Assembly (NCBI GenBank): GCA_016861205.1
Contig: BOKX01000001.1
Coordinates: forward strand, 988,758-1,052,757
DNA from: Patescibacteria group bacterium
GTDB lineage: Bacteria; Patescibacteriota; Microgenomatia; UBA1400; PJMF01
Length of the DNA stretch: 64,000 nucleotides
Direction of reading: 5' to 3'
The position numbers and the translations under genes are program-made. The notes beneath the pieces are model-generated. The model ran no database searches. It was not told the origin of the DNA and saw nothing but the letters and a program-made list of their open reading frames with translations. Below are positions 8,573 through 51,698 of this stretch, one piece after another. Position 1 is the stretch's first letter, and the number at the start of each line of letters is the position of its first letter.

Positions 8573-10405
8573 TTAGGGATTTTGAGTGGGGGGTTGAATC
8601 CCGTGCTGGCGAATCCGATCCATCATGGTGGGGGTGGACTGCACGTTAATACTGGGACCAGCCGGTGGGGTGATTGGGGTGGCTGGCTGAACAGGTGTCA
8701 CAGGTGGAGGAGTGATCGGCTGAACAGGTGCCGTCACCGACGTAGTTGAGGTCATTGGAGCTGGGGTACCGCCAAAAGAAACGGGGGGTGGAGTTGGTCG
8801 TAAACCGCCAGTAGGAGGTACCAAGTTGCTTGGTGGTGAGACTTGATTTGACTGGAGCTTGTTAATCTTTTGCTGCAGTTGGGCCTCGTAGGCTGACGAC
8901 GTGGCTGCTCTGGTTCCAGATTGACCACCGCCACCGCCACCACCGCGGCGACGACGCATCAAAATGATAGCGAGGACGATGAGCAAGATTACTGCGCCCA
9001 GTCCCAGTCCGGCGATGCCCAAAATGCTGGGTGATAGACCGAATAGGCCACTGACAGTTTCATCGGGGAGCACGGGTTCACCTGGCAAGGTAGTGTCGGG
9101 CAGTTCACCGCCTGGCAACGAACTTGGTGAGGCGAAGACGAATGGAGTTGGACTCGGGAAACTGCTGGGTGCCACACTAGCTGTCCCAAACGGGTTGGTG
9201 GTGGGCGTGTTAGGAGTTACCACGGCTCCCTTGGGTGCAGTGGTTGTGCCCCCAAATGGGCTAGCCGGGCTACAGGTCGTACTACTGCTGTTGGTAGCCA
9301 AGCGGCAGCGACCACTGACACATCGGAGGTTGGTGGCACACTGGCTATTTGAACTACAGGCTTGGTTACAGCTACGAGCCATAGCTTGCTGCTGAGCTGC
9401 TGTAGGCGCAGAACAGCTGGTGTTGTCTGGATTGTCTGGGCGACGGCAGCGGTTGAAGTAGCAGGTGTAGCTGTTACCACACTCATTACTGTCGGCACAG
9501 TACTCGTTACACTGGCGGTTAAGACCTTGGTCCGCTGGGGCGGCGCAGGTGCTGCTGCCAGTATTGGTTGCTAGGCGACAGCGACCTTCGAAACACCGCA
9601 GCTCGCTAGCACACTCACTATTGCTGCTACAGGTTTCATTACAAACCTTCAAAGTAGTGCCACCAGTTCCTGGAGTGGCCGATGGCGAAGGTGAGGGAGA
9701 GGGTGAGGGACTAGCCTGTGTTTCTGGACTGGGAGTAACTTGAGTACTTGGTGATGGGGTTGGGCTGGGTGTGGGATCAGCAGCGGCTACTACAGTATAG
9801 GTAGAAGCAGCTGCGGTTCGCAAAATATCCTCAGGCGGATTGGCGTTGAAACCAGCTACCAACGAACCATTGGGATCCATAGTTATAGTCAATGAACCAG
9901 CTTGGGTGGGAGTGAAGGTCAACCGAGCCACTGGTTGGGCTGTCGTAGTGGTGAACGGCTGACCAAAAGTTGCCGGCAGGGCCAAAATTCGGACACGAAA
10001 CCCACCGTTTTGCGGAGTAGCTTCAGCCAAAGCGCTCGTTAAGCCACTACTGGTAATCACGCTCGCTGACAGTTGATTGGTGACGTCAGTGTTGACGTTG
10101 AGTGTGAGTTCAACACCGGACGTTTGGGCACCTTGGGTGTTAATGGTTAGATCTATGTTGGTTTCTTGGCCGACCGTCAAATTAGTACTGGTGCCAGGGG
10201 AAACACCCATAGTAACTGTGCCGGTGTCACTAGAAGCAGCCCGGCGTAGATCTTGAGAATCTTGAAGTGGTTTCTGGACCAACAATAAACTTGCCGCACC
10301 AACTACCAACGCCAATCCACCCAAAGCACTGGCTACAAGACCCATCGACTTGGTCCAGGGGCGTTTCTTGACGTGGATGATCTGGTCTTTGACGCTGATT
10401 TCCAT
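8573..10405 (-). CDS. Membrane-anchored surface protein. Order of elements: N-terminal signal/anchor, cohesin-like beta-sandwich region, Pro/Ser linker, three 6-Cys repeats, TM helix, poly-Arg/Gly stretch, Pro-rich cytoplasmic tail.
   Basis: The N-terminus has a hydrophobic segment. A region of about 150 aa (LTVGQETNIDLTINTQG…LTITMDPNGSLVAGFN…TYTVVA) has the alternating strand pattern of cohesin domains. The PSPTPSPS linker is followed by 3x [C-x3-C-x5-C-x5-C-x4-C-x9/10-C]. Then comes a TM helix (ILGIAGLGLGAVILLIVLAIILM), then RRRRGGGGGGG, then a PPxTP-rich tail. Confidence 0.55.
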   Translation of the reverse strand: MEISVKDQIIHVKKRPWTKSMGLVASALGGLALVVGAASLLLVQKPLQDSQDLRRAASSDTGTVTMGVSPGTSTNLTVGQETNIDLTINTQGAQTSGVELTLNVNTDVTNQLSASVITSSGLTSALAEATPQNGGFRVRILALPATFGQPFTTTTAQPVARLTFTPTQAGSLTITMDPNGSLVAGFNANPPEDILRTAAASTYTVVAAADPTPSPTPSPSTQVTPSPETQASPSPSPSPSPSATPGTGGTTLKVCNETCSSNSECASELRCFEGRCRLATNTGSSTCAAPADQGLNRQCNEYCADSNECGNSYTCYFNRCRRPDNPDNTSCSAPTAAQQQAMARSCNQACSSNSQCATNLRCVSGRCRLATNSSSTTCSPASPFGGTTTAPKGAVVTPNTPTTNPFGTASVAPSSFPSPTPFVFASPSSLPGGELPDTTLPGEPVLPDETVSGLFGLSPSILGIAGLGLGAVILLIVLAIILMRRRRGGGGGGGQSGTRAATSSAYEAQLQQKINKLQSNQVSPPSNLVPPTGGLRPTPPPVSFGGTPAPMTSTTSVTAPVQPITPPPVTPVQPATPITPPAGPSINVQSTPTMMDRIRQHGIQPPTQNP

Positions 10406-10407
10406 AC

Positions 10408-11832
10408 TTAACTTTGGGCCCTGAAGGCAGTTACTAAAATTGTGTAATCCAAGATATTAATAACATTATCACAGTTTAGGTCGGCGGCGCTGCTAGCATT
10501 TCCACCAAGGTAAGCAGTAATAAGAGCGGTGTAGTCAAAGAGATTCACTCGGCCATCGCCAGTAATATCAGCCGTCTTGTTGCAGGTACCAGGACTGGCG
10601 CTAGGACTTGGATTCAAGCTTGGGCTGGGGCTAGGGTTGGCTGAAGCTGGTGGGGTAGGACAGGGTAAGAACTGACAGTTACGAGTTGCACTACGGCTGA
10701 CAAAGCTGCCATCTGGACATTGGAAAACATCAGCTGGACAAACCACTGGGCTGGGGCTAGGACTGCTGCTGACAATGATGCTCGGCGAAGGAATGACACT
10801 GGCTGACTGGAGGAACGGTGTTAGGCGAGCGTTAGTCAAGTTAATGGTACCCACAATTGCGCTTTGGTTATCAGAGGTCAAGCTAAGGGTGGGGTAGATG
10901 ACTGGATTGCCGATGGCGTGACTGCCGAAAGCATTACCACTGTAAAAGAGCCAACCACCTGGGTTTTGGCCGTTATAGGTCCGGACTTCGCTGACACTCC
11001 ATGTGTTGTTAACACGTTGGAAGTATATAAAGAGACGCATCTCAACACCTTGCTCTTGCCAGATCATTTCGAGGGTTTGGTTGCTACCGCTGCCTGGATT
11101 GCTTGATACTTGGAAAGCAGTGCCATTATCTGGAATACCGTGGAACGTTCGGTTGCCAATCTGGAGGTTGAAGTCATCAGCCACTAAGCGAGCGTACTGT
11201 GTCTCCCAAATAGCCGCGTGCACGATTGGTGAGGCGCTGGGTGAGGGAGTGGGTGCGGCGACGTTGAACGTGTACTGAGCAGTAAATACACTGCGGAGAA
11301 TGTCTTGGAGTGTGCTGTGTTCGATAGCTTTGCTTTGGCTGGCAGTAGGTTCTGGAACCAAGGTAAAAGAACCGGAAGCTGGGGCGGCATACGATAACGT
11401 GCCGACTGTTACATAGCTGGTACTCGAAAAAGGTTGCGTTGGGTTTTTGGTAATTAACCCTAATCTCAGATAGATGCCATTCTCTGAAGTGGTGATCTGA
11501 GGATTGGCTAGATCGAAGCGACCTGTGCTGACTGGAGTAAACGTCATTGGTGTGGTTGGATAGGTGCCGGTCATGTTGTACACCAACTGCAGACCATCTA
11601 TCTGTCGACCACCAGTGTTGACCTGAAGATTGGTAGTGATAGTTTGGCCGGGGGTGCCGGTTTGGTTGTTGGAGTTCCAGCGGACTTGAACAGGTCCTTG
11701 AGAAACACTAGCTTGATTGCGTGTGTCTTGACTAAAACGACTTAGGAAAACAGCAGCCATTAAACCCAGTAGTAATAGTAGTACTAAACTACCCATCACT
11801 ACCATGCGGAGTGGGATCTTCATGCGGCGCAT
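10408..11832 (-). CDS. Secreted protein with a C-terminal type-I dockerin domain. Also has an N-terminal cohesin-like region and a 4-Cys module.
   Basis: Signal peptide (MRRMKIPLRMVVMGSLVLLLLLGLMA). The C-terminus DITGDGRVNLFDYTALITAYLG…DLNCDNVINILDYTILVTAF contains two 22-residue Ca-binding dockerin repeats (D-x-N/T-x-D-G-x-V-N-x2-D-x-T-x-L). The preceding module is VVCPADVFQCPDGSFVSRSATRNCQFLPCP. Its stop is 3 nt from the next gene, so the two are likely an operon. Confidence 0.6.
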   Translation of the reverse strand: MRRMKIPLRMVVMGSLVLLLLLGLMAAVFLSRFSQDTRNQASVSQGPVQVRWNSNNQTGTPGQTITTNLQVNTGGRQIDGLQLVYNMTGTYPTTPMTFTPVSTGRFDLANPQITTSENGIYLRLGLITKNPTQPFSSTSYVTVGTLSYAAPASGSFTLVPEPTASQSKAIEHSTLQDILRSVFTAQYTFNVAAPTPSPSASPIVHAAIWETQYARLVADDFNLQIGNRTFHGIPDNGTAFQVSSNPGSGSNQTLEMIWQEQGVEMRLFIYFQRVNNTWSVSEVRTYNGQNPGGWLFYSGNAFGSHAIGNPVIYPTLSLTSDNQSAIVGTINLTNARLTPFLQSASVIPSPSIIVSSSPSPSPVVCPADVFQCPDGSFVSRSATRNCQFLPCPTPPASANPSPSPSLNPSPSASPGTCNKTADITGDGRVNLFDYTALITAYLGGNASSAADLNCDNVINILDYTILVTAFRAQS

Positions 11833-19827: not shown

Positions 19828-20376
19828 CTAGTCAATCTTGCCACCACTGGCCCAGAGGTTGGTCTGGTCGGTCACGAGGTTTTTAGAACCTGAGCCGCCG
19901 TGATTCGCATAAAACTCAATGTAGTCACTCGATCCGTTGCAGTCGACCACGGCTGTGACAGAGGCGATTACACCATTCGTGCTAGCGCCTTCAGCGATCA
20001 TGACACTGTGGAGCTCGGAACCATTTTTGTAAATGGAGGCGATCACCGCGTTGCCACTGCCCACGCCACCACTGGCAAATCGAACAGCGCAGTTCACCAC
20101 ATATTTTCCAGCAACCGTGGGGGTGAAGCGGTAGTTACTGGTGTCAAAATTGCTGTTGGTATCAAATACTTCGGTGTTAAATTGAATTTTGGTTGGCGTT
20201 GAGGCGCTAATTGATTGGCCAGCGGTGCTGTACACAGAGAAGCTGGGTTTGGCGCCGGGTGATCCCCAAGCGGGGAGGCCGCTACTTACAACTAACTGGT
20301 CGCCATTGGATCCGATTGGCAACTTTGCCAGGTTTCCACTCGAGTCTCGGTAGTAGAGGTTTCCGGTATCTGTCAT
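19828..20376 (-). CDS. C1q/TNF-like (tail-fibre-like) jelly-roll domain protein
   Basis: C-terminal about 120 aa show the C1q pattern F-x-a-P-x-a-G-x-Y-x-h-x-h (YRFTPTVAGKYVVNCAVRF…IYKNGSEL…YIEFY), with a Gly/Ser-rich N-terminal half. Confidence 0.45.
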   Translation of the reverse strand: MTDTGNLYYRDSSGNLAKLPIGSNGDQLVVSSGLPAWGSPGAKPSFSVYSTAGQSISASTPTKIQFNTEVFDTNSNFDTSNYRFTPTVAGKYVVNCAVRFASGGVGSGNAVIASIYKNGSELHSVMIAEGASTNGVIASVTAVVDCNGSSDYIEFYANHGGSGSKNLVTDQTNLWASGGKID

Positions 20377-22096: not shown

Positions 22097-22867
22097 TTAG
22101 TTTTGGTCGCCCAAGGCTATGGCCAGAAGGTCAACTTTTTTGGCGCCGGTGATTAGCTCTGTTTCTCGATTTTGAGCTTGGGCTTCGTGAAAGATGTTAC
22201 GCGTCAATGAGCCATACACAAAAATGTTATCGACTTGTTCAGCCACGACGTCATCAGGCAAATGTGGAACTAAGGCACGAATCTGGTTGGCCATCTTTTG
22301 TTCAAGGGCGGCGTGAACAGCCTCTTTGAGGTACTCGATGATGTCTGGTAATGCACCATTGTTTTGAACCATGGTTTGCCGATCGATAACATAGGGAGCA
22401 TTTTTAATGATGCTGGGGTAATTTGTGGCCAGCCATGACACCAGTTGTGACATATCATTCTCAAATTGGTCGGGATTTTTACTGAGGTCAACTTTGAGCA
22501 AGTTGCGGGCTTTAAGCATAGCTATGACCAATGAATCAAAACTCAAGTTCATTTCCGGTCCAAAAAGCTCAAACAGTTCGTTAATGGCTTTATTGGCTGC
22601 TGCAAAGTTCAAGTTGTTCATTTGCAAAAGATCAAGCAACTCGCGTAGACCAGGGCTACGTACGTCGCGAAGTAAACCGCGACTCAAGGCGCTTACGATG
22701 TAGTTGGATAGCGCGTCTTGAAGTTGATAGATTTGTTCATCAGGCAACTGAGGTAGGAGTGGTTTTAAGTAGTCATAGATAGCAACGTAGTCTTTCGAGC
22801 TATGGCTTTCCAGCTCATCGAGTGCGGCATAAAACGACTTTTCGAGATCGGACAGTGGTTCATTCAT
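22097..22867 (-). CDS. Hypothetical protein (256 aa)
   Basis: ORF only. Confidence 0.45.
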   Translation of the reverse strand: MNEPLSDLEKSFYAALDELESHSSKDYVAIYDYLKPLLPQLPDEQIYQLQDALSNYIVSALSRGLLRDVRSPGLRELLDLLQMNNLNFAAANKAINELFELFGPEMNLSFDSLVIAMLKARNLLKVDLSKNPDQFENDMSQLVSWLATNYPSIIKNAPYVIDRQTMVQNNGALPDIIEYLKEAVHAALEQKMANQIRALVPHLPDDVVAEQVDNIFVYGSLTRNIFHEAQAQNRETELITGAKKVDLLAIALGDQN

Positions 22868-22899
22868 ACGAGTATTATATCCCTGGAGCGAACTTTAGG

Positions 22900-23436
22900 C
22901 TAATCCACCTGGGCGGCCACATGTGGCAGCGACCGTTTTTGTCCGCCGACGTCGATTCCAAAACCATAAATGAAGGCGTCGCTGCTAATCACAAAGCCAA
23001 TGTTGGTGGCTTCAACCGGTACTTCTTGGGCTCCATTGCGTGCGAAGAGGCAAGCGATGCCGGCTATTTCCGCAAATCCTGCCACATTCAGCAATTCTGC
23101 GATAATCGCCTGCAATGTATGGCCAGTATCCAAAATGTCCTCAATGATAAAAGCTCGTTGACCAGCAAATTGATTGGGTTTAAATAATGTACTGATCTCG
23201 GGTTCACGCGATGAAGTGGTGGCATCATAACTGTGCGTTTTGATGGAAGTTTGTGGGAAGTCGTAGCCTAACTGACCCATAGCCTGAATAAGGGCAGCGG
23301 CAAACTGCATGGCGCCCTCCATCACAATTACCAAAACCACATTTTCAGGTGTGACAAGTGTGTCAATAATTTCGGTGGCAAGTTGTTTAATCCGTTCGGC
23401 GAGTTGCTCGGGTGTGTAGAGGATGGTTTCAATCAT
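22900..23436 (-). CDS. hpt: Hypoxanthine-guanine phosphoribosyltransferase
   Basis: PRPP-binding motif AFIIEDILDTGHTL, 178 aa, typical HGPRT length and layout. Confidence 0.9.
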   Translation of the reverse strand: MIETILYTPEQLAERIKQLATEIIDTLVTPENVVLVIVMEGAMQFAAALIQAMGQLGYDFPQTSIKTHSYDATTSSREPEISTLFKPNQFAGQRAFIIEDILDTGHTLQAIIAELLNVAGFAEIAGIACLFARNGAQEVPVEATNIGFVISSDAFIYGFGIDVGGQKRSLPHVAAQVD

Positions 23437-23503
23437 GATCTCACAGTACGCTATATCGAGTCATGTTAAAATACGCACCAGCTAAGTAAGGATCAGCTAA
23501 ATC

Positions 23504-25210
23504 ATGGTTTTTGCAGAACTACCAGTCAATTCCGACTATTCGGAATTTCCGAATCAACCACAACAACTGATGCAGTATATGGTTGAGGGTTTGGTGCAGT
23601 GGTATCGGCGATACAACTTGAAGGTTGAGCATTTTCGTGATGTCAAACCAAGATTTATTGGCGAGTTAGAGCTTCAGCAAAAGCTCCGGACGAATCAGTT
23701 GCCGGCTGCTCATAATCCCAGTTTCGTTTACTTACTTAAAGATATTGTTTCCTATGTTGGTGACCAAGAATCGCTTGAAGCGTTGGCTGAGCGAATTTTA
23801 AAACCAAGTGATGAACTATTGGTAATGACAGCGATTGAGCGGTTGGTCGACAAAATTCCGCGTCCAAAGCGGTACCCAACAGACGATTTAGTATCGGAGT
23901 TAGCTGCTCGACTTGAGACTCGTTTGCCCCAAATCATCTTAGCTGGTTATGCGGATTTTATGGACCAGGCGGCAACCCGCCAAACTAAAATCGTGTCTGC
24001 TCTGCGGACAGAAATGATGGGATCAATTGGTCAGGCTGCAAGTGCATTTATTGATCTAGTTTCTGCCGAAGACCAAACCAATTTTTGGACTAACCATGAT
24101 GTGTCGTTAGCCCTGATTACTTTGCCAGAAGTGACGGGTCAGAACGATGAGTTGAGTTGGTCGCTGCGCGTTAATCCACAAGATGCTGCGAGCTGGTGGT
24201 GGCAAGCCGAACAACTGACCCAAGAAGATAATTTAACACTGTTGGATAAGTATCAGAAGTTGATGGAAGCTGAGCGGTTGAAGCCAGAGAACACACTTCG
24301 ATTGACAGGGGAGGCCGCCAGCGAGTTTAGTCAAAAGCTTTTGGATGACCCAGATTTACAGCCAATACTAGAATACTTGGTCATAAGCCAATGCTGGGAA
24401 ATTATGTGGGAGCGGTATCAGTCACTCTCATGGATTTTTCACCATGTGGCAAACAGCAACAACGAGCGAGTGCAGTTGGAAGTGCAAACGATGAACTTAG
24501 ACGTAGCAGTCAAAGGTTTTGAGTTGATTAAGTCTGCCACCCAGGAGGGCCGGCGTTTGCAGCTGGGGACAACCATGTTGTTCACAGCGGATCAAGTGAC
24601 CAGCCTGCGTTACCGACCGCTGGCAGTCGCCTTTGATGATACGCAAGAGATTCCCAAACCGCGGGCCCAGCAGCACCCACTTCAGGAGCGACTTGAACAA
24701 CCGTATGCGACGCATACAGTAGAACCACTACAGTTGTTTGAAGTTAGTTATGATGAGCAGCAACGAGTCGTTCGGTTTGAGTTGCCAGATCACCATCATA
24801 TAGTCTGGGTTAGGGTGACAGAGAATGGAATCATGGAGTACGCGGCTAACTCAGGAACAGATAGTAGTCAGTTGCAATTTTGCCGGCAACCGACTGCTTT
24901 TACTGCAGAGATGCGATATGTGGCGGATTTTTTCTCAAAAATGGCGATAACTGCTTATCAGCTTGATCCTATTGATTTTGAACAACACCATCGTGCGATC
25001 GACCGTAAGTATCGCCAGGTGCTAAAGCAATCTAGCCTGGAAAAATTCTTTGGAGTTCTGAACGTGAGCCAATTTGGCTCACTGTTCACTACCTACTTAC
25101 ATTTACACAATACAGTCATGTATCAGTTCTTTGTAACTGATCAACCAGGCAAGTTTAAACCGCTCAAAAATTTGGAACAACTTAAAGTTGTTGATCGTTC
25201 CCAAAACTAA
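23504..25210 (+). CDS. Hypothetical protein (568 aa)
   Basis: Long ORF with normal composition; no family recognised. Lies 48 nt upstream of the CobA-like gene on the same strand. Confidence 0.5.
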   Translation: MVFAELPVNSDYSEFPNQPQQLMQYMVEGLVQWYRRYNLKVEHFRDVKPRFIGELELQQKLRTNQLPAAHNPSFVYLLKDIVSYVGDQESLEALAERILKPSDELLVMTAIERLVDKIPRPKRYPTDDLVSELAARLETRLPQIILAGYADFMDQAATRQTKIVSALRTEMMGSIGQAASAFIDLVSAEDQTNFWTNHDVSLALITLPEVTGQNDELSWSLRVNPQDAASWWWQAEQLTQEDNLTLLDKYQKLMEAERLKPENTLRLTGEAASEFSQKLLDDPDLQPILEYLVISQCWEIMWERYQSLSWIFHHVANSNNERVQLEVQTMNLDVAVKGFELIKSATQEGRRLQLGTTMLFTADQVTSLRYRPLAVAFDDTQEIPKPRAQQHPLQERLEQPYATHTVEPLQLFEVSYDEQQRVVRFELPDHHHIVWVRVTENGIMEYAANSGTDSSQLQFCRQPTAFTAEMRYVADFFSKMAITAYQLDPIDFEQHHRAIDRKYRQVLKQSSLEKFFGVLNVSQFGSLFTTYLHLHNTVMYQFFVTDQPGKFKPLKNLEQLKVVDRSQN

Positions 25211-25257
25211 GAACTGCGGCCGACAAACACGTAGCTCACCTGTATACTCGGCCTTGT

Positions 25258-26256
25258 ATGATCGATGTTGAGCAGACGTACGTCAAAAATCCACTCAAGT
25301 ATGGGTATGAACTGCCCCCGGCATTATTTACTGATGTAATTGGTGGCACATTAGTTCGAGCTATCGGCAAAAATTGGGTGGTGGCGGTTACCAGCATCGA
25401 CCAAGACAAACTAACACCATGGGAGCGGCTGAGTGAGTTATTGGTCGATCCGAGCCAATTACTACTCTACAAAGTGACTAAATTACCGGTCAACATTGAC
25501 GCCAATCTAGTGATTGGTGAAGGAATGTCTGACCAGCGGCGAGCCATCCTACGGGCTCAGTCAAAATCAAATCATCAACATGTCGTGCTGATTGATCCAG
25601 ATGCGAATTATGATAACTATGATTTGATTTCGTTATTTAGCATTTTTAAACGAAGATTTGATACTGCTAGGGCGACCGCCATTATTGGTTTGGGTAAGGG
25701 CAAAACTACCACTGCTTTGGGCATGGCTCTGGAAGCTGTTTTACAAGGTAAGTCAGTCAAAATTGTCCAGTGGTTCAAGGAGCGGAACACCGGTGACCTG
25801 ACGTGGGCGATCAACGAGCATTTTTTCCCAGCCAAACTTAAAAAGCCAGAACTGATGGAGTTTTATCCTATGGGTTTAGGTTTTTTTGGTTCACCCAACA
25901 TGGACCGAGTTAAGGGTGAACAAGCCTATGCTCAACACCGTGCTAAGGCGTATGAAGGTCTCGAGCTTGCCAAAAAGTTGGTGTTTGAAACCAAGCCGGC
26001 CGTGATTGTGTTGGATGAACTACTGGACACGGTTGCTGAGATTGCCCGCAACATTGAGTACCCATTGATTGAGCTCGATAGCTTGAAGATTTTTTTGGCC
26101 GAGATTACTTCCCAAAACCACACCGAGGTGGTGGTGACCGGTCGTCGGACAATTCCCGAAATTGTGAAGTGGTTTAAACAATCGATCACCATTGATCAAG
26201 TCAAACACCCATGGGATGATGCTCACCAGGGTGCAGTATCAGGGCTTGATTACTAG
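25258..26256 (+). CDS. Two-domain protein: unknown N-terminal domain (about 140 aa) fused to a CobA/CobO/BtuR-type ATP:cob(I)alamin adenosyltransferase-like P-loop domain
   Basis: The C-terminal half aligns with E. coli BtuR across its length: IIGLGKGKTTTALGMALEAVLQGKSVKIVQWFK… (BtuR: FTGNGKGKTTAAFGTAARAVGHGKNVGVVQFIK), …VIVLDELLDTVA…HTEVVVTGRRTIPEIVKWFKQSITIDQVKHPWDDAHQGAVSGLDY (BtuR: …VVLDELTYMVA…HQTVIITGRGCHRDILDLADTVSELRPVKHAFDAGVKAQMGIDY). Confidence 0.6.
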   Translation: MIDVEQTYVKNPLKYGYELPPALFTDVIGGTLVRAIGKNWVVAVTSIDQDKLTPWERLSELLVDPSQLLLYKVTKLPVNIDANLVIGEGMSDQRRAILRAQSKSNHQHVVLIDPDANYDNYDLISLFSIFKRRFDTARATAIIGLGKGKTTTALGMALEAVLQGKSVKIVQWFKERNTGDLTWAINEHFFPAKLKKPELMEFYPMGLGFFGSPNMDRVKGEQAYAQHRAKAYEGLELAKKLVFETKPAVIVLDELLDTVAEIARNIEYPLIELDSLKIFLAEITSQNHTEVVVTGRRTIPEIVKWFKQSITIDQVKHPWDDAHQGAVSGLDY

Positions 26257-26259
26257 GCT

Positions 26260-27936
26260 GTGAGTGTGTTTACCTACAGTATGCGTCAGCATATCGACCG
26301 TTTGATTCCGGCTAAGTGGCAACAAGCCTGGGTGATTGCCCTCATTGTTTTCGTAGTGTACTTGCCATCGTTCTGGAACACTTTCGTGTGGGATGACGAG
26401 CAGTTTATTCAAAGGAATTTGTTTACCACCTCAGTTCGCTATATTCCTCAAATTTTTACCACGAACACCATTGCCGGGGCTGGCGAGTTTAGCAATTACT
26501 ATCGACCGTTCACCACACTCAGTTTCTTAGTTGATAGGTTGATTTGGGGGTTGCGACCATTTGGCTTTCACTTGACGAACACCGCTTTGCACGCTGGGGC
26601 TGCGGTACTCCTTTTTTTCTACTTGTCACGACTTGGTGTTAGGCGGTCGGCAGCTTGGTGGTTGGCGTTGGCTTTTGGTCTCAATCCTTTGCAAACTGAG
26701 GCGGTGGTGTACATGAACTCTCGAGGTGATTCATGGTATGTGCTGTGGCTTATGGCGGCGTTGTTGCTGGCGTTGCGGTGGCTAACAACAGTTGATTGGC
26801 GGTGGTACGTGGCTAGTTTATGTTGTTTTGTGGTTGCCATTTTGAGTAAAGAAATTGCAGTTGCGGGGGCTGGTTTGCTAGGGCTGACCTATCTGCATAT
26901 TTGGTTGAGAGGAGGAGACGGTAGTAAAGTATGGTCAAACAAATGGTGGATCAAAACACGGTGGGGTTGGGCATTGATTTTGGGTTGGGGCAGCGTGGTT
27001 ATCGGATATGTGGGTTTGCGGTTAACTGTTCTTAGCTTTGGGAATTTTCTCAATTTCTATCAGGGGACCAATCTATATACAGATAGTTTGGTGGTGAGAT
27101 TGGTCATGTTTTCGCGGGCGTTGTTTGAGTACTGGCGGTTGTTGATTTTACCGTACCCGCTGCACATGGAGCGTGGCATACCGTTGATAACCGAGTGGTG
27201 GAGTTGGCCCGTGTGGGGAGCGATTTTAGTGGTGGCGAGTGTATTAGGGCTTGGTTGGTGGGAGTGGCGCCAAACCCGACAATCTTGGATTTGGTTTGGC
27301 TTGGCCTGGTTTTTTGTCATGCTTGGACCAGTGTCTGGGGTAGTCCCGATTAATGGCTTGTTGTATGAACACTGGCTCTACTTGCCAATGGTAGGCTGGT
27401 GGATCATGGTCGGTCGAGTCATGCAACTGAGTTTGCAACGACTGCAACGGCAGTGGCTGGACCGAGCAATGAGTTGGCTGGTGGTAATGGTGTTTGTGAT
27501 CTGGACAGGATTGACGATCAGACAAAACTGGATCTGGCGATCTCCATTGAGTTTATACCCGTATACTCTCCAGTTTGCCCAAACCGCTCGCCTCCACAAT
27601 AATCTGGCGATGGCCTATGCAGACGCTGGTGAGGTGGGTCAGGCGATTCATCATTACCAACAAGCGATTGCGCTGGATGATGGTTATCCACAAACCCACT
27701 ACAATCTGGGGCGCACCTATCTAGAACTTAATCAGGTACAACAGGCAGAGGTCGAGTTTAAACGAGCGCTGGAAATTAATCCCCGGTTTGATTTGGCCAA
27801 AGTGGCGTTGCTCGAGTTAGCACTCGAAGCGGAGAACTGGCCGCTCGCCAACCAGTACCTCGATGAGTTGCTTCAACTTTATCCGCGAGAGCCGCAATTA
27901 TTGCAGTTGAAAACTCAGTTGAAAGCCAAGCTATAA
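26260..27936 (+). CDS. Polytopic GT-C-type glycosyltransferase-like membrane protein (PMT/ArnT-like) with C-terminal TPR repeats
   Basis: More than 10 predicted TM helices. A DE motif in the first extracytoplasmic loop (WNTFVWDDEQF) as in GT39/GT83 enzymes. C-terminal TPR units (…LAMAYADAGEVGQAIHHYQQAIALD…NLGRTYLEL…). Confidence 0.55.
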   Translation: MSVFTYSMRQHIDRLIPAKWQQAWVIALIVFVVYLPSFWNTFVWDDEQFIQRNLFTTSVRYIPQIFTTNTIAGAGEFSNYYRPFTTLSFLVDRLIWGLRPFGFHLTNTALHAGAAVLLFFYLSRLGVRRSAAWWLALAFGLNPLQTEAVVYMNSRGDSWYVLWLMAALLLALRWLTTVDWRWYVASLCCFVVAILSKEIAVAGAGLLGLTYLHIWLRGGDGSKVWSNKWWIKTRWGWALILGWGSVVIGYVGLRLTVLSFGNFLNFYQGTNLYTDSLVVRLVMFSRALFEYWRLLILPYPLHMERGIPLITEWWSWPVWGAILVVASVLGLGWWEWRQTRQSWIWFGLAWFFVMLGPVSGVVPINGLLYEHWLYLPMVGWWIMVGRVMQLSLQRLQRQWLDRAMSWLVVMVFVIWTGLTIRQNWIWRSPLSLYPYTLQFAQTARLHNNLAMAYADAGEVGQAIHHYQQAIALDDGYPQTHYNLGRTYLELNQVQQAEVEFKRALEINPRFDLAKVALLELALEAENWPLANQYLDELLQLYPREPQLLQLKTQLKAKL

Positions 27937-27942
27937 TGCGAG

Positions 27943-29019
27943 ATGCAGAAAACTTGGCAACGTTTGAGTCAACAACCTCAGCTACAAGCACCATTTCGTG
28001 TTCGTGAAGTGGTGATTGATACGATTCGAGGCTTTTTTAAAACCCAAGACTTTTTGGAAGTTGAGACCCCACTGTTGGTCCAACGGCCCAGCACCGAGAC
28101 TTTTTTGGATTTTTTTGGATCTGAGTTGCGGATGGCCGAAGGCCAGCGTCGACCGGGTTTTTTGACTACTAGTCCTGAGTACGCCATGAAGAAAATTTTA
28201 GTGGCGGGTTTTCCCAGAGTGTTTCAAGTCTGCAAAAGTTTCCGTAACGGGGAAGGCAGGAGCCCAAAGCACAATCCCGAGTTTACTATTTTGGAGTGGT
28301 ATCGCACCCAAGCCGATTACACCGATATCATGAGGGACTGCGAAGAGCTGATGCTCGAGTTGGTAGCAGCGGTTAACGAGTGGCGTGGTGAGGCAGTTAT
28401 GCCCGATGTGGAGCCTACTTTGCAGTATCAAGGGCGAACCTATCACCTGAATGCACCCTGGCCGCGACTGAGTGTGGCTGAGGCGTTTGAACAGTTTGCG
28501 GGGATTGAAGTTGAGGAACTCTTGGACGAGGTGGCGCTGCCCAAGCGAGCAGCGACGAAGGGATACCAAGTGACTGATGCCACTTCTTGGGAACAAGCCT
28601 ATCATCAAATATTTTTGAATGAGGTCGAGCCAGCGTTAACGCAGTTTGATCGACCGGTGTTCTTGTACGACTATCCAACCAGCCAAGCCGCGCTGTCGCG
28701 CCGGAAAGCTGATGATCCGCGGTTTGCAGAACGGTTTGAGTTGTATCTGGGTGGCATTGAGTTGGGAAACGCATTTTCTGAATTGATTGATGCTGATGAA
28801 CAGGAAGCACGGCTTAAAGCTGACCTGGAACTTCGCCGAAAGGAACAGCGTCCGCCGTTCGAACTCGATACCGACTTTATTGAAGCCTTGCGACTGGGGA
28901 TGCCGCCGACAGGTGGTATAGCAGTAGGGGTGGATCGGTTGGTAATGCTGCTGGCCGATGTGCCAAGCATTAAAGACACATTGTTCTTCCCAGTGGAAGA
29001 TGTGTTTGATCTCGAGTAA
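27943..29019 (+). CDS. epmA: Elongation factor P--(R)-beta-lysine ligase (EpmA/PoxA/GenX; LysRS-like catalytic domain without an anticodon-binding domain)
   Basis: Class II aaRS motifs and an EpmA-specific alignment with E. coli EpmA: TSPEYAMKKILVAGFPRVFQVCKSFRNGEGRSPKHNPEFTILEWY, AERFELYLGGIELGNAFSELIDADEQ, GMPPTGGIAVGVDRLVMLLAD. 358 aa. Immediately upstream of efp. Confidence 0.85.
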   Translation: MQKTWQRLSQQPQLQAPFRVREVVIDTIRGFFKTQDFLEVETPLLVQRPSTETFLDFFGSELRMAEGQRRPGFLTTSPEYAMKKILVAGFPRVFQVCKSFRNGEGRSPKHNPEFTILEWYRTQADYTDIMRDCEELMLELVAAVNEWRGEAVMPDVEPTLQYQGRTYHLNAPWPRLSVAEAFEQFAGIEVEELLDEVALPKRAATKGYQVTDATSWEQAYHQIFLNEVEPALTQFDRPVFLYDYPTSQAALSRRKADDPRFAERFELYLGGIELGNAFSELIDADEQEARLKADLELRRKEQRPPFELDTDFIEALRLGMPPTGGIAVGVDRLVMLLADVPSIKDTLFFPVEDVFDLE

Positions 29020-29039
29020 AAGTGGTATAATACACCCCT

Positions 29040-29609
29040 ATGGCAACAATCAAAGGCGGAAACATCACCAAAGGTAACTACATTTTGTTCAAGGGTGCCC
29101 CTTGGCTTGTCACGAAAACCGAGTTCGTTAGTCCGGGCAAAGGCTCTGCTTTCACTCGAGCGAAACTCAAAAACGCTCGAACTGGTGCTTCCCAAGAGTT
29201 CACGTTCAAATCGACCGAAACAATTGAAGAGCTGGATGTTTCCAGCCGTGAAATGCAGTTCTTATATCTGGATGGCAGTGACGCAGTGTTCATGGATCCA
29301 CGTAGTTATGAACAAGTCTCAGTGCCAGTTGATCTGCTCGATGGCCGTGAAGGTTTCTTGACTCCAGACATCACCGTGTACATTTTGTTTTACAACGAAG
29401 CCGCCATTGGGGTGCGTTTGCCAGCTAGTGTCAAACTCAAAGTCACGTATGCTGAAGATGCCACCGCTGGTAACCGCGTCAATGCTCCCAAGAAGCCAGT
29501 CACGGTTGAAACCGGCTTGATTGTTCAAGCGCCACTGTTCATTAAAGTAGGTGACGTCATCAGTATCGAAACTGATGGTGGCCAATACCAGTCGCGCGTT
29601 AACGAGTAA
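29040..29609 (+). CDS. efp: Elongation factor P
   Basis: 189 aa, MATIKGGNITKGNYILFKGAPWLVTKTEFVSPGKGSAF… The PGKG loop lysine is the EpmA substrate position. Three OB-like domains. Confidence 0.9.
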   Translation: MATIKGGNITKGNYILFKGAPWLVTKTEFVSPGKGSAFTRAKLKNARTGASQEFTFKSTETIEELDVSSREMQFLYLDGSDAVFMDPRSYEQVSVPVDLLDGREGFLTPDITVYILFYNEAAIGVRLPASVKLKVTYAEDATAGNRVNAPKKPVTVETGLIVQAPLFIKVGDVISIETDGGQYQSRVNE

Positions 29610-29623
29610 AAAGCTAGCCTCCT

Positions 29624-30808
29624 ATGTTTCTCCAGACACCAGAAGCCAAACGGCGAGCGGCCGGCCTAACTGCCATCGCTGGTACTTTAGATCTAGCAGT
29701 TACAGCCGGAACTGAACTGCCAACTTGGTCTGATGAGGATCCCACGGCCATAGTTGTTACTGAAGATCAAAAAACCATATTGGCTTCAAGCACTAGCCCA
29801 ACTGAGTTACAACAAGTTTTGGTTTCTCCTGGTGGGGGAGAGTATCCTGGTTTACATGATGTGTCGTTGAGACCGAATGAGTATCTCCGCAAAACCACTG
29901 GGACTGGTTGGGCAATCCTGAGCTATCATCCGGCTGATGCACCCGTAACTTGGAAATTGCGTCATTTATTGACCGGTCAAGAAATGCAAGTTGCAGAAGT
30001 GTGGCCAACCTTTGATCTTGAAGGCAATGCATATATAAATCTGGGGACTGACCAAGCTGGTCTGCCAGTGCTGTTTGTTCAAGTTCACAATGAGGGCTAT
30101 TCAAGAGTAGGTTACCTTGATGGGCGAGTGCAGGTTGTTGATGGTTACATCACCTCGGTTGAGCACGGCCAAGCTGTGACTGTTTTTAACAAAGACACTA
30201 CCGCGATCGCAGTGGTTAATTTGGAAACTACTGAAACGTTTCGTCTGCCAACAGACATGATTACGTCAATTGCCGCTAACTCCGAGTGGGTCGCCTGGAG
30301 TATGGTTGATCAAGACGGGACAGCTATCACTAGTTATGACCGAACGAACGAGGTATATCGGGAAATGCACTTTCCAAATGAGTACCTGGTGGCCGGATTC
30401 GCATTGGAAGGTGACACATTGTTGATAAGCTCAACTGAGCTTGATATTCACAATCAAACCTCGACCAAAACCTATGCTTTGGATCTTAAAACGCAATCAA
30501 TGGAGCTGATAAGTAGACTCGACTTTTTAGCCAATCAAGTCAGCTTTCTTCCTGATGGGAAAACTGCGGTTTTCAACCCACTGGAATGGAATGATGGCGT
30601 GACATCCGTTCTCAATGTAGCGACTGGCCAAGTTACCAGTTTAGATCGAACCTATCTGGGCAGTTTTGACTTGGTTGACTTGCCGAATCGAGCTGAAAAT
30701 GAAACTGTGGAGCCACTGCTCATCGCAATCTTACTCTATATTATTGCTTGGCAACTTCTGGTATCTGCCAAACGCCAAGCCACTCAGCACCAAAACAGCC
30801 GAGGTTAA
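29624..30808 (+). CDS. Hypothetical protein (394 aa) with a C-terminal TM anchor
   Basis: ORF. A hydrophobic helix (PLLIAILLYIIAWQLLV) lies near the C-terminus. No family recognised. Confidence 0.45.
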   Translation: MFLQTPEAKRRAAGLTAIAGTLDLAVTAGTELPTWSDEDPTAIVVTEDQKTILASSTSPTELQQVLVSPGGGEYPGLHDVSLRPNEYLRKTTGTGWAILSYHPADAPVTWKLRHLLTGQEMQVAEVWPTFDLEGNAYINLGTDQAGLPVLFVQVHNEGYSRVGYLDGRVQVVDGYITSVEHGQAVTVFNKDTTAIAVVNLETTETFRLPTDMITSIAANSEWVAWSMVDQDGTAITSYDRTNEVYREMHFPNEYLVAGFALEGDTLLISSTELDIHNQTSTKTYALDLKTQSMELISRLDFLANQVSFLPDGKTAVFNPLEWNDGVTSVLNVATGQVTSLDRTYLGSFDLVDLPNRAENETVEPLLIAILLYIIAWQLLVSAKRQATQHQNSRG

Positions 30809-30825
30809 GAGTTCACAAAGGCTAA

Positions 30826-31593
30826 CTACAGTGTCTCGTAACTGAGTGTCACCGAGTACGTAAAGCTCGTTGAGCCAGGCTCGACATTGGTGGGAGCGCC
30901 ACCACCGGCACCGGCTTTGGCATCCATCATCACTTCTGGTCGAGGATAGTAATCAGAACCGACATTAATCTCCATCACGTTGACGATTTTGCCTAAGCGC
31001 ATGCCAGCCAGTCTTGATAACTCATTGGCTTTGTCTTTGGCGTTATCGATGGCTTCTTTGCGGGCTTGCTCTTCAGTTTCGGCTTTTTTAGTATCGGAGA
31101 GTGAGAAAGTAATCCCGCCAATCTGGTTGGCGCCCGCTCCGGTGGCTGCGTCGATAGCCTGGTTTAGCTTGGCGAAATCGGTCAGGGTGGCCACTAAGTT
31201 GGCGTTGACTGAGTAACCGATGATGCGTTGGCCGCTACCTGATTGGTAGTCATAGTTGGGGTAGAGGGAGTAGTTTTCAGTTTTGAGGTCTTTTTTCTCA
31301 ACACCCAGTTTAGCGAGCTCACCATTTATGTTGTTAATGATGGTGTTGGCTTTGTCCTGAGCGGCCTTGACGGTGGGTTCGTTGACAGTGATGCCGAGTC
31401 GAACTTCAGCCTGGTCGGGGATGGTGGTGATTTTGGACTCACCTGTTACGTCAAAAGTGGCTTGTTTATTGGTTGAAACTTGGTTAATGGCCAAGGAAGG
31501 GCCGCCAAAAAAGCGAGTGACTGCCACCGCACTGCCGACTGCCAACGTCGAGATCAGAATTGTTTGCAGGGCGGGGAGGAGGAGTTTTTGCAT
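30826..31593 (-). CDS. SIMPL/DUF541-family (YggE-like) periplasmic protein
   Basis: Signal peptide, then the characteristic two-lobed DUF541 pattern (…GYSVNANLVATLTDFAKLNQAIDAATGAGANQIGGITFSLSD…EEQARKEAIDNAKDKANELSRLAGMRLGKIVNV…). Confidence 0.7.
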   Translation of the reverse strand: MQKLLLPALQTILISTLAVGSAVAVTRFFGGPSLAINQVSTNKQATFDVTGESKITTIPDQAEVRLGITVNEPTVKAAQDKANTIINNINGELAKLGVEKKDLKTENYSLYPNYDYQSGSGQRIIGYSVNANLVATLTDFAKLNQAIDAATGAGANQIGGITFSLSDTKKAETEEQARKEAIDNAKDKANELSRLAGMRLGKIVNVMEINVGSDYYPRPEVMMDAKAGAGGGAPTNVEPGSTSFTYSVTLSYETL

Positions 31594-46321: not shown

Positions 46322-46906
46322 ATGAAAATTGGTTTATTCGGAGCTGCTTTTGATCCACCACATCTTGGTCATCAACATTTGATTGCTGAGTTATTGAAAG
46401 CCAACCTGGTTGATCAGGTATGGGTTGTGCCTGTCAAAAGTCACCCCTTTGCCAAACCTCTTAGCCCAGTCGAACACCGCTTGGCTATGGTGAAGCTGAT
46501 GCTCGCTGCTTTGCAGACAGAGGGCTGGGGCCCTGAGCAAGTACGTCTTGAGACGTATGAACTGGATCAACCCGGGGTAAGTTACTCGTACCAAACACTA
46601 CAGTACTTTGCAGGCGCTTATCCAGACCACACCTTTAGCTGGATCATAGGGGCTGATAACGTAGCCAATTTTGCCAAGTGGCATCACTACCAAGAATTAC
46701 TCGCTCAACATCAGGTGTTAATCTACCCACGACCAGGTTACAGCATGGAACCACTCTTGCCAGGCATGGTGCCACTGGACGCAGTGACGCCCATGGCGGC
46801 CTCATCAACAGAGGCTCGAAAAGTACTGGCTGAAGCAGCTAGCGACACGACGAAGCTTGTATTACCAGAGGTTGCCCAGTATAGTAAGCAGCATCAGCTC
46901 TATTGA
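46322..46906 (+). CDS. nadD: Nicotinate-nucleotide adenylyltransferase
   Basis: GLFGAAFDPPHLGH (HxGH nucleotidyltransferase motif), …WIIGADN… ISxDxR-like region. 194 aa. Confidence 0.85.
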   Translation: MKIGLFGAAFDPPHLGHQHLIAELLKANLVDQVWVVPVKSHPFAKPLSPVEHRLAMVKLMLAALQTEGWGPEQVRLETYELDQPGVSYSYQTLQYFAGAYPDHTFSWIIGADNVANFAKWHHYQELLAQHQVLIYPRPGYSMEPLLPGMVPLDAVTPMAASSTEARKVLAEAASDTTKLVLPEVAQYSKQHQLY

Positions 46907-46909
46907 GAC

Positions 46910-47722
46910 ATGGCACCCTTTATGACCCTTCACCTTTCCAGTCCCGATCAAACCCTCAACGCTTTAGTTGAGTTTATTCGCCACACTTTTGACACCCAAA
47001 AAAAACAGCTTGCAGTGGTTGCTGTTTCTGGTGGCATCGACTCAGCTCTAGCTCTGACCCTAGTGACGCGCGCGTTGGGTACAGCTCGAGTTCGACCACT
47101 TTTTTTGCCATACCAAAATCAGAGCACTGCCGATGCCGAGTTGATTTGCACTTGGAATCAAATACCGACGAGCCAATGGCAAGTGACTAACATTGAACCG
47201 ATCGTTCGCGCAGCGGCTGGCGCAGTTGGACTTGATCTGGAAGCCGGCGACGGACAGCCGATAGCCATGGAGCAAGTTAGGGTTGGCAACCTGATGGCTC
47301 GTGCCCGAATGATGGTGGTTTTTGACGTGGCCAAAAAATGGGATGCCCTGGTTTGCGGCACTGAAAACAAGTCAGAGCATTACTTGGGTTACTTCACTCG
47401 GTTTGGTGATGCAGCCTCAGATTTAGAACCCATTAGCACCCTCTACAAGACGCAGGTTCGCCAGTTAGCGACACATCTTGGTTTACCGGAGCAGTTGATC
47501 ACGAAACCGCCCTCAGCTGGTTTGTGGCAGCATCAAACAGATGAAGACGAGTTGGGTTTCACTTATGAACAAGCTGATCAGGTTTTGCAACAAGTGATCG
47601 ATGAAGGGACGCTGTCAGCTCCCAAGGTGGTGCCGGGCATAGATCCCGACATCCAAGCCAAAGTGATTGGCCAAGTTAAGTCATCTGCTTTTAAGCGGGT
47701 GGTGCCGTATGTGCTAGAGTAA
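46910..47722 (+). CDS. nadE: NH3-dependent NAD+ synthetase
   Basis: PP-loop SGGIDS, about 270 aa, adjacent to nadD. Confidence 0.85.
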   Translation: MAPFMTLHLSSPDQTLNALVEFIRHTFDTQKKQLAVVAVSGGIDSALALTLVTRALGTARVRPLFLPYQNQSTADAELICTWNQIPTSQWQVTNIEPIVRAAAGAVGLDLEAGDGQPIAMEQVRVGNLMARARMMVVFDVAKKWDALVCGTENKSEHYLGYFTRFGDAASDLEPISTLYKTQVRQLATHLGLPEQLITKPPSAGLWQHQTDEDELGFTYEQADQVLQQVIDEGTLSAPKVVPGIDPDIQAKVIGQVKSSAFKRVVPYVLE

Positions 47723-47747
47723 AGCAAGAGAGTACGAAGAAAGTTCC

Positions 47748-48365
47748 ATGACACCCGCACCGTTGCACTCACAAATCGTGACCGAGTTTACCGAGCTTGC
47801 ACCACTGGTGGAGCGTTTTCGCCAAGCAGGCCAGCGCATTGTGCTGACCCAAGGCGTTTTTGACCTGGTTCATATTGGTCATGCCCGCTATTGCCAAGTC
47901 GCAAAGCAGTTTGGTGATGTACTGATTGTGGGCGTGGACAGTGATGAGAAAGTGCGCACTCGCAAAGGGCCGGACCGACCGGTCGTTCCCCAAGCAGAAC
48001 GGATGGAGATGGTGGCTCATCTGGCGGCAGTTGATGTGGTAGTGCTCAAACAGCTAGACGAGCCAAAGTGGAAACTAATCAAGACGGTCAAACCGGATGT
48101 CTTAGTGGCGACCCAGGATACCTACACACCTGAGCAAGTGGCGGAGTTGCAGAAAATCTGTGGTCGAGTGGTGGTGTTGGAGCCCATGGCCACCACCAGT
48201 ACCAGTGCTAAGTTGCGCCGTCTGCAGATCGGCGCTGCCCAAAAAATTTCTGATCAACTGAGTCAAAAACTGATTGAAACCATCGAAAATGTGTTAGCCG
48301 AGTTGAAAGGGGAACGACCACATGTCCGCAAGACCCGCCGACCGCGCGCCAAAGCCAAACGGTAA
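47748..48365 (+). CDS. Cytidylyltransferase-like nucleotidyltransferase (RfaE domain II/HldE-adenylyltransferase-like) with a basic C-terminal tail
   Basis: VLTQGVFDLVHIGHARYCQVAKQFGDVLIVGVDSDEKVRTRKGPDRPVVPQAERMEMVAHLAAVDVVV matches the (T/H)xGH…GVNSDxSV…RP…ER core of this family. Confidence 0.55.
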   Translation: MTPAPLHSQIVTEFTELAPLVERFRQAGQRIVLTQGVFDLVHIGHARYCQVAKQFGDVLIVGVDSDEKVRTRKGPDRPVVPQAERMEMVAHLAAVDVVVLKQLDEPKWKLIKTVKPDVLVATQDTYTPEQVAELQKICGRVVVLEPMATTSTSAKLRRLQIGAAQKISDQLSQKLIETIENVLAELKGERPHVRKTRRPRAKAKR

Positions 48366-49206
48366 AACTATCTTGATTGCGTACGTGCCGGTGGTTCACA
48401 CGGGGTACTTAGAGTGGTTTGCCCGGTTTCCTGAGGTTACGGAACTGTGGCTGTTGGGCCGGGAGTTGATTCCCGAGTACAGAGCGTTACTCAAAGATCT
48501 GCGGGCCATCGAACCAACTGCCATGGTGTCTCTGTTACACAGTTTACAACGCTTTTCGAACATCCAAGTGGCCACGCCGGCAGACTTAACCCAACTGGCT
48601 GCCAGTGGGTATCATGTGATTGCCCCAGACGAGGATATTTCCAGACAAGTTATCTTGCAGTACTTCTCGCCCGACCAAGTCACGTTTGACACGGTTTTCT
48701 TGCGCTGGGAAGCAGTGCGAACCACGGTCGCTCACGAATTAGAACCAGACGTTGAGGTGTCCGAAGCCGAGTTTGATCGCCAGATGATGCAGGCGGCGCG
48801 CGATGCCGCTCAGCACAGCTCAGACTGGTGGCGACAAGTAGGTGCGGCTTTGGTGATTGGTGAAGAGCTGAAGCTGGTGGTGCGTAATCGTCACTTGCCT
48901 CAGGACCTGCAGCACTACAGCGATGGCGATCCGCGGGCTCTGTTCCAAAGCGGCGAACAGATTGAGTTCACAAGTTCCATTCATGCCGAGGCGGAGTTGA
49001 TTGCTCAAGTAGCCAAACAAGGTCTCAAAATTGAGGGAGCGAGTGTGTACTGTACCACTTTTCCTTGTCCGGTTTGTGCCAAGTTGCTGGCTCGGGCGGG
49101 GATAGCCAAACTGTACTACAGTGATGGCTATAGCTTGCTGGATGGTGAAAATGTGCTCAAGAATGCCGGGGTGCAAGTAGTGAAAGTAGTTAGCACTCCA
49201 AAGTAG
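48322..49206 (+). CDS. dCMP/CMP deaminase (zinc-dependent) fused to an uncharacterised N-terminal domain of about 150 aa
   Basis: C-terminal HAEAELI…CTTFPCPVCAKLL is the cytidine/deoxycytidylate deaminase H(A)E…PCxxC zinc site. The N-terminal half has no recognised motif. The start overlaps the preceding gene by about 44 nt, so it may be later. Confidence 0.7.
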   Translation: MSARPADRAPKPNGKTILIAYVPVVHTGYLEWFARFPEVTELWLLGRELIPEYRALLKDLRAIEPTAMVSLLHSLQRFSNIQVATPADLTQLAASGYHVIAPDEDISRQVILQYFSPDQVTFDTVFLRWEAVRTTVAHELEPDVEVSEAEFDRQMMQAARDAAQHSSDWWRQVGAALVIGEELKLVVRNRHLPQDLQHYSDGDPRALFQSGEQIEFTSSIHAEAELIAQVAKQGLKIEGASVYCTTFPCPVCAKLLARAGIAKLYYSDGYSLLDGENVLKNAGVQVVKVVSTPK

Positions 49207-49235
49207 GTGCGCAACTCGCCAACCAAGCCGGGGAT

Positions 49236-49700: not shown

Positions 49701-49706
49701 GTTGGT

Positions 49707-51675: not shown

Positions 51676-51698
51676 CGACAGAGACGGCTACTAGCGAG

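Follow-up and report, generated by a model that had tools for sequence, protein, structure and literature searches.

The locus examined here, at positions 23,504 to 26,256 of a 64,000-nucleotide (nt) stretch of DNA from a Patescibacteria group bacterium (contig BOKX01000001.1; this whole stretch is termed the window), raises the question of why a CobA/BtuR-type adenosyltransferase domain should carry an extra N-terminal domain, and of whether the 568-amino-acid (aa) protein encoded directly upstream has any part in its function. Overall, our analysis favours, with a probability of roughly 0.65, the view that the 332-aa CobA-like protein is a single-chain asymmetric pseudo-dimer of a CobA/BtuR-type ATP:co(I)rrinoid adenosyltransferase with one active site. 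The two open reading frames (ORFs), separated by an intergenic gap of 47 nt, and the two domains of the second are as follows.

23504..25210, + strand: acidic, soluble 568-aa orphan protein (ORF; isoelectric point 5.2; no transmembrane-like segment)
25258..26256, + strand: gene for the 332-aa, two-domain putative CobA-type ATP:corrinoid adenosyltransferase of the long family (ORF)
25258..25659, + strand: N-terminal domain, aa 1-134, a probable degenerate CobA duplicate lacking the P-loop, with a RecA-like alpha/beta fold (profiles and structural model)
25660..26253, + strand: C-terminal, predicted catalytic CobA/CobO/BtuR domain, aa 135-332 (Pfam PF02572; alignment to 1g5r/4hut of the Protein Data Bank (PDB); columns compared with 45 canonical CobA sequences)

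The original prediction assigned the C-terminal 190 aa or so to the CobA/BtuR family up to the last residue, and this assignment holds. The Pfam profile PF02572 (CobA_CobO_BtuR) matched aa 142-332 over its positions 8-172 of 172 (E 9e-25; 88.3 bits, cut-off 25.7), phmmer aligned the same residues with residues 34-196 of Salmonella CobA, up to the C-terminus (1g5r/4hut, E 1e-5), and the protein contains both GLGKGKTT (aa 144-151) and the terminal VKHPWDDAHQGAVSGLDY (VKHPW…GAVSGLDY). All significant matches of the 332-aa protein in the Pfam and NCBIfam scans were to CobA-family models, and neither a PduO-type nor an EutT-type model was returned by them.

A search of 5.8 billion proteins recovered approximately 70 full-length homologues (282-368 aa; E 1e-218 to 1e-40), followed, after a sharp gap, by ordinary CobA proteins of about 185 aa that matched the C-terminal 57% only, at E 1e-8 or weaker. 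Judged by sequence, the long-form proteins are thus a rare clade, sharply set apart from canonical CobA. Members that carry a name belong to Patescibacteria and to a Ktedonobacteraceae bacterium; a single assembly supplied the two full-length homologues labelled "Patescibacteria group bacterium", and one member lies on an archaeal contig (L098), which also encodes aCPSF1 (893.8 bits, equivalog model), an archaeal proteasome beta subunit and TrmB. Where they are named at all, the proteins are called plain CobA, and their N-terminal half bears no domain annotation. A near-identical copy of our CobA-like protein (P0123) is encoded on a 1.15-Mb NCBI contig, while the 510-kb Patescibacteria contig GCA_039934415.1 carries two long-CobA paralogues that are about 40% identical (L001 8001-8957 and L006 8001-9008), one flanked by pentose-phosphate genes and a D-Ala-D-Ala ligase, the other by CN-hydrolase and carbamoyltransferase genes. 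A search of metagenome contigs with an alignment of the C-terminal domain without its P-loop added 3 real loci only, all duplicates of known contexts, and a literature search on cobalamin, adenosyltransferase or ribonucleotide reductase in Patescibacteria/Saccharibacteria found nothing relevant.

The alignment columns of 67 long-family sequences were compared with those of the 45 canonical ones, and the following motifs were found to correspond.

25687..25710, + strand: P-loop, G144-L-G-K-G-K-T-T151, canonical G36-T43 (G144, G146, K147, G148 and K149 invariant or nearly so, and common to canonical CobA)
25882..25890, + strand: F209-F210-G211, canonical F91-T92-W93 (F91 kept, W93 replaced by Gly)
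26011..26019, + strand: L252-D253-E254, Walker-B-like LDE, canonical L126-D127-E128 (invariant in the family and in canonical CobA)
26137..26145, + strand: T294-G295-R296, canonical T159-G160-R161 (invariant or nearly so in both groups)
26203..26253, + strand: C-terminal motif K316-H317-P…G329-L-D331-Y332, canonical K181-H182…G193-I-D195-Y196 (H, G and D are shared invariants)

The G, K, G and K of the P-loop are invariant in 68 family members and in the 45 canonical sequences alike. The invariants of canonical CobA that the long family has kept are G36, G38, K39, G40, K41, G47, Q63, K66, E73, G90, F91 (Phe in 98% of canonical and 100% of long sequences, as F209), D97, L126-D127-E128, T159-G160-R161, H182, G193 and D195. 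It has in addition invariants of its own, namely W172, E175, H188, R217, H227 and D257, and an insertion around aa 211-230. The P-loop lysine and other catalytic residues had been named beforehand as ones whose loss would point to a pseudo-enzyme; as the lysine and the catalytic motifs are all retained in the column comparison, the C-terminal half, a CobA/BtuR-type domain with apparently intact catalytic motifs, does not look like one. The 332-aa protein is probably an active, corrinoid-related enzyme of the CobA type.

The extra domain, put at about 140 aa by the original prediction, is real: an N-terminal extension of approximately 134-140 aa is common to all of the roughly 70 homologues. 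Local alignment of the N-terminal domain with the canonical CobA profile by hhalign gave a probability of 91.8% (E 7e-7) and a score of 44.2, which none of 60 column-shuffled controls reached (11.6±2.0, maximum 18.4). In global mode the probability rose to 95.5% (E 4.9e-9), with 126 collinear columns pairing residues 1-133 of the domain with residues 18-181 of CobA, and the same register was recovered, more weakly, against the family's own C-terminal domain and against the PDB sequence of CobA. The matched motifs, which read as CobA-specific, are these.

N-terminal domain LEYlY: canonical CobA GLl.VyTG
N-terminal domain LLGS.vRAlGKgW.V.V: canonical CobA AALG...RAlG.G..V.vV
N-terminal domain dLvl.D: canonical CobA dLVVLDE
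N-terminal domain HvMv: canonical CobA hVVVTGR
N-terminal domain YDLIS: canonical CobA ADLVTE

At the position of the P-loop the N-terminal domain carries non-conserved residues, and from this, together with the profile match, it follows that the domain is most simply described as a degenerate CobA duplicate devoid of a P-loop. The proposal that the fusion partner might be a new kind of corrinoid uptake or handling domain thereby gives way to the profile alignments. In an AlphaFold2 model, the order of secondary-structure elements in the N-terminal domain mirrors that of the catalytic half. The whole chain was modelled with a predicted local distance difference test score (pLDDT) of 92.1 and a predicted template modelling score (pTM) of 0.92, the latter indicating that the N- and C-terminal domains would be held in a fixed arrangement.

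What the two halves have each kept is complementary. R51 and D172, found in 100% of canonical CobA sequences, are lost from the catalytic half, where their equivalents are variable (E159, 37%; K307, 31%), and are precisely those that the dead half has kept (R34, 100%; D122, at least 91%).

25357..25359, + strand: R34, counterpart of canonical R51 (invariant in the family; aligned with R51 in four comparisons; E159 of the catalytic half variable)
25621..25626, + strand: D122-L123 of YDLIS, canonical D172-L173 of ADLVTE (global hhalign; D122 at least 91%, L123 invariant; K307 of the catalytic half variable)

Because of this complementary retention, the simplest reading is that of a sub-functionalised fused homodimer. 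According to it, a tandem duplication of an ancestral cobA would have been followed by fusion of the two copies; that at the C-terminus would bind MgATP and produce adenosylcobalamin (AdoCbl) by adenosyl transfer to reduced cobalt, while the N-terminal copy, its P-loop lost, would no longer bind ATP in the canonical way and would serve as the second subunit of a normal homodimer, completing or covering the single active site, with R34 and D122 acting in trans. One chain would in this manner do the work of two identical chains in Salmonella, and the enzyme would activate salvaged corrinoids, no corrin synthesis genes being in view. In crystal structures of CobA the corrinoid site is reportedly completed by the N-terminal helix of the neighbouring subunit, and the two sites of the dimer in 4HUT are said to behave asymmetrically; either feature would lend plausibility to a pseudo-dimer with one site.

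The gene contexts of relatives bear on a corrinoid role. The conserved-neighbourhood analysis suggested by the original prediction gave a divided answer, as no neighbourhood is conserved across the 10 distinct long-CobA contexts, and one corrinoid operon emerged, on the archaeal contig L098 and its twin L093, headed by the following element.

L098 2404-2483, + strand: AdoCbl-II riboswitch (RF01689, 44.1 bits)
L093 3882-3961, + strand: AdoCbl-II riboswitch (RF01689, 44.1 bits)

The riboswitch (gathering score 36.5) is followed, after 48 nt, by a tight set of co-directional genes, encoding in this order a 1135-aa unknown protein, the long CobA, an S-component of the energy-coupling factor (ECF) type (PF07155, 27.1 bits vs 26.7), a DUF4430 protein (37 bits) bearing a membrane segment at its N-terminus and a lipobox-like Cys, and a 454-aa unknown protein whose N- and C-terminal segments are hydrophobic. 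Transcobalamins have DUF4430 as their C-terminal domain (PMC4350170). The set thus looks like a module for the capture, uptake and adenosylation of B12, and its composition around a long CobA supports the corrinoid role. To our knowledge, cobalamin riboswitches have rarely if ever been reported in archaea, so that lateral transfer from bacteria is possible for L098/L093. Canonical short CobA was found, among the matches listed, on contigs titled Saccharibacteria, Peribacteria, Nealsonbacteria, Woesearchaeota and Nanoarchaeota, no long-family locus being among those matches, and it is therefore nothing out of the ordinary for a reduced genome to have a corrinoid adenosyltransferase gene.

A second AdoCbl-II riboswitch (42.6 bits), on contig L097, heads a 404-aa gene that is convergent with the long CobA gene and overlaps it by 4 nt; the corresponding spot in a relative has no CobA gene. 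This gene (L097 6846-8227, - strand) encodes an acidic protein with a Cys-rich C-terminus (…GGCELCVSCHH…) and no Pfam domain, belongs to a family of 7 clusters, one member of which is named Candidatus Dojkabacteria, and would be an uncharacterised B12-regulated protein. Its kinship with a 616-aa protein encoded upstream of the long CobA on L002, for which a weak Cys-rich motif was the only sign (E 0.017), was treated as unproven.

In two distant genomes a NodU/CmcH-type carbamoyltransferase gene adjoins the long CobA gene (L006 9749-11782, of a Patescibacteria contig, and L008 6045-7706, whose CobA-like protein shares a cluster of at least 90% identity with a protein named Ktedonobacteraceae). 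The two carbamoyltransferases are 60% identical, whereas the CobA-like genes are only 43% identical; that of L006 has DDE transposase and Replic_Relax genes as neighbours, suggestive of a mobile island, and L008 has a B12-binding radical SAM gene two genes away. With 2 of 10 contexts concerned, this adjacency was set aside as insufficient for a functional clue.

Several observations weigh against a single-chain adenosyltransferase. First, the catalytic half differs from canonical CobA by the loss or replacement of R51, W93 (replaced by G), Y135 (by E), W109, D172 and G187; at the W93 position, Trp in 89% of canonical sequences, the long family has Gly in 93%, next to F, Y or V at position 210. 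The title of Moore et al. 2012 names F91 and W93 as critical for four-coordinate cob(II)alamin, and W93 is said to help form this species. Second, the NCBIfam equivalog cut-offs for cobA were missed by far (TIGR00708, 65.6 vs 167.75; NF004637, 77 vs 185), as they were by the archaeal member (74.2 and 84.4, respectively), which makes the protein a divergent member of CobA. Third, family scans covering 47 window ORFs (including 45 of the 61 mechanically called ORFs of at least 150 aa) detected no cobalamin-related enzyme or transporter gene and no AdoCbl-dependent enzyme, and the 64 kb as a whole gave no match to a cobalamin riboswitch; the earlier remark that no other cobalamin genes lie nearby is borne out accordingly. 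Fourth, the riboswitch link concerns only 2 of the 10 distinct contexts. Finally, that the N- and C-terminal domains copy the arrangement of the CobA homodimer, with R34 and D122 facing the active site, is something that we infer.

Much of this would also suit a CobA homologue with a new function, in which the catalytic half still binds ATP but serves another acceptor, or acts as a corrinoid chaperone or sensor, and does not make AdoCbl. Such a change would go well with the low equivalog scores, with the loss of W93, Y135, W109 and G187 alongside the gain of the family invariants E175, H188, R217, H227 and D257 and of the insertion, with the sharp gap from canonical CobA (E 1e-40 vs 1e-8), with the presence of two paralogues on one Patescibacteria contig, and with the lack of B12 genes in most long-CobA contexts. 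We nevertheless consider it unlikely, given that no variation is seen in the nucleotide- and Mg-binding motifs or at the F91 equivalent, that the riboswitch, ECF S-component and DUF4430 operon of L098/L093 is what one would expect of a B12 salvage enzyme, and that no conserved neighbour hints at another substrate.

A more far-reaching reading, which we regard as distinctly improbable, would make the long form a distinct adenosyltransferase of ultra-small symbionts, in which a remodelled lower-face pocket (W93 to G, Y135 to E, and the new H188, R217, H227 and D257) accommodates scavenged, unusual or incomplete corrinoids, and fast-evolving upstream proteins (568 aa here, 616 aa in L002 and 1135 aa in L098) are lineage-specific partners for corrinoid capture; as a separate point, the complementary loss would show that in classical CobA R51 and D172 act in trans across the dimer.

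The N-terminal domain could alternatively be an unrelated RecA-like module, for instance one derived from a helicase, gained by fusion and not by duplication of CobA. Modelled alone, the domain did adopt a confident RecA-like alpha/beta fold (pLDDT 93.7), and Foldseek returned weak matches, CobA being within the top six and having the best target-normalised template modelling score. Structure alone would therefore go no further than "RecA-like", and it is the sequence profiles that decide for CobA and leave the unrelated module more improbable still.

There remains the 568-aa gene, which the original prediction correctly described as an orphan paired with, and upstream of, the CobA-like gene. 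Its product, in which a simple hydropathy scan saw no transmembrane-like segment, gave no match to Pfam, NCBIfam, PHROG or PADLOC and a single, non-significant match to PDB sequences (E 0.039). Word-indexed searches of 5.8e9 proteins and an exhaustive HMMER search (phmmer) of 1.84 billion representatives yielded homologues in two clusters only, at 98% and 70% identity; an extra phmmer match, P0127, was rejected as spurious, BLASTP reducing it to a 24-aa motif against many repeat copies in a 3125-aa protein. Comparison with the 70%-identical orthologue gave proportions of nonsynonymous (pN) and synonymous (pS) differences of 0.174 and 0.745, respectively, corresponding to a ratio of nonsynonymous to synonymous substitution rates (dN/dS) of about 0.05 with dS near saturation, and the gene is therefore real and under purifying selection. 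Only the close relatives L089 and L099 keep the 568-aa gene next to the CobA-like gene, a pairing absent from the nine other family contexts examined. All-vs-all BLASTP detected no similarity of the 568-aa protein to the 404-, 495- or 454-aa neighbours of family genes, and BLASTP likewise none to the large upstream proteins of L002 (616 aa) and L098 (1135 aa).

Downstream, the two genes continue into a co-directional string with gaps of 3-47 nt, comprising the 568-aa ORF, the CobA-like gene, a membrane protein with tetratricopeptide (TPR) repeats, an EpmA-like lysyl-tRNA-synthetase paralogue, EF-P and a 394-aa ORF. In window positions 26260-29609, directly 3' of the CobA-like gene, the string encodes a 558-aa polytopic membrane protein with C-terminal TPR repeats, and then, with gaps of 3-20 nt, an EpmA/PoxA-like class II lysyl-tRNA-synthetase paralogue and EF-P, which together form the classic EF-P modification pair. 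As the genome is so compact and the same string runs on into EpmA and EF-P, adjacency says little on function. In a scan of 22800-31000, promoter and terminator sites were no more numerous than in shuffled sequences, and operon boundaries therefore cannot be drawn.

The suggestion that the enzyme has new partners for corrinoid uptake or handling in the 568-aa protein and the N-terminal domain is very unlikely to hold. In its favour, the 568-aa gene precedes the CobA-like gene by 47 nt on the same strand, an orthologue at 70-80% identity has the same pair, and large unannotated proteins are also encoded directly upstream in L002 and, behind the riboswitch, in L098. Against it, the 568-aa protein has no transmembrane-like segment in the hydropathy scan, homologues only in close relatives, no similarity by BLASTP to those other upstream proteins and no such pairing in the nine other contexts examined, co-direction is uninformative in a string of this kind, and the N-terminal domain is already accounted for as a CobA duplicate. 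From the sequence comparisons, the 568-aa gene appears to be a lineage-specific orphan that happens to adjoin the CobA-like gene, with no detectable link to B12 beyond adjacency, and it adds nothing demonstrable to the CobA finding.

The remainder of the window is cellular DNA of a small-genome bacterium, with ribosomal proteins, NusG, tRNAs, several aminoacyl-tRNA synthetases, MreB/MreC, PBP2, topoisomerase I and many ORFs without a family. No ribonucleotide reductase was found in the 64 kb. A deoxynucleotide salvage set is present, made up of ThyA, dCMP deaminase, a deoxynucleoside kinase, thymidylate kinase, a purine-type phosphoribosyltransferase and an HD-domain protein, the match to a YfbR-type 5'-deoxynucleotidase being below threshold. 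These deoxynucleotide salvage genes lie, with two cytidylyltransferase-like proteins and NAD synthase, in a dense nucleotide and NAD salvage neighbourhood (46322-55684 and 22900-23436), whose purine-type phosphoribosyltransferase gene adjoins the pair formed by the 568-aa and CobA-like genes. Further ORFs on the - strand were recorded: a 256-aa acidic protein without a family (22097-22867), whose weak PADLOC matches to QatB (E 0.0017) and PDC-S28 (E 0.0021) are probably due to chance; a 474-aa protein with a dockerin type I domain at its C-terminus, adjoining a 610-aa protein without a family (8573-11832); and a 182-aa ORF (19828-20376) that starts with MTDTGNLYYRDSSGNLAKLPIGSNGDQLV….

If the single-chain pseudo-dimer is the correct reading, nature would here have put into one chain an enzyme that usually functions as a symmetric dimer, and the complementary retention of R51/D172 on one side and of the catalytic motifs on the other allows a prediction of the residues through which the subunits of classical CobA act across their interface. 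The long CobA would mark a B12-activating step in Patescibacteria and in one archaeon, organisms believed to rely on their neighbours for cofactors, and would make the cobamide dependence of these organisms directly testable.

Three known systems invite comparison. The two-RecA-domain ATPases of helicase superfamilies 1 and 2 (SF1/SF2) differ in that no helicase motifs are present here, the sequence signal leads to CobA, and the order is reversed, the P-loop domain coming second. The tandem proteins of NF005647 (PRK07413, a 382-position model), which we take to be cyanobacterial, are alike in having two CobA-like modules in one polypeptide; compared with this model only, the catalytic half (aa 143-297) matches the second half of the model (positions 207-347), whereas the N-terminal half has no match to the first. 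With 20.7 bits against a cut-off of 426, the 332-aa protein is not a member; it is also shorter (332 vs about 382 aa), and the hosts of the long form (Patescibacteria, Ktedonobacteraceae and one archaeon) are different. Salmonella CobA (1G5R/1G64/4HUT; PF02572) is a homodimer of one-domain subunits of about 190 aa, in contrast to the two CobA-derived domains in a single chain described here. Relative to canonical CobA, the long form has G for W93 and E for Y135, carries R51 and D172 only in its inactive half, has the insertion at aa ~211-230 and falls under the cut-offs of TIGR00708 and NF004637. The long form is accordingly a new structural variant, as a probable single-chain pseudo-dimer, of a known kind of enzyme, and not a new kind of system.

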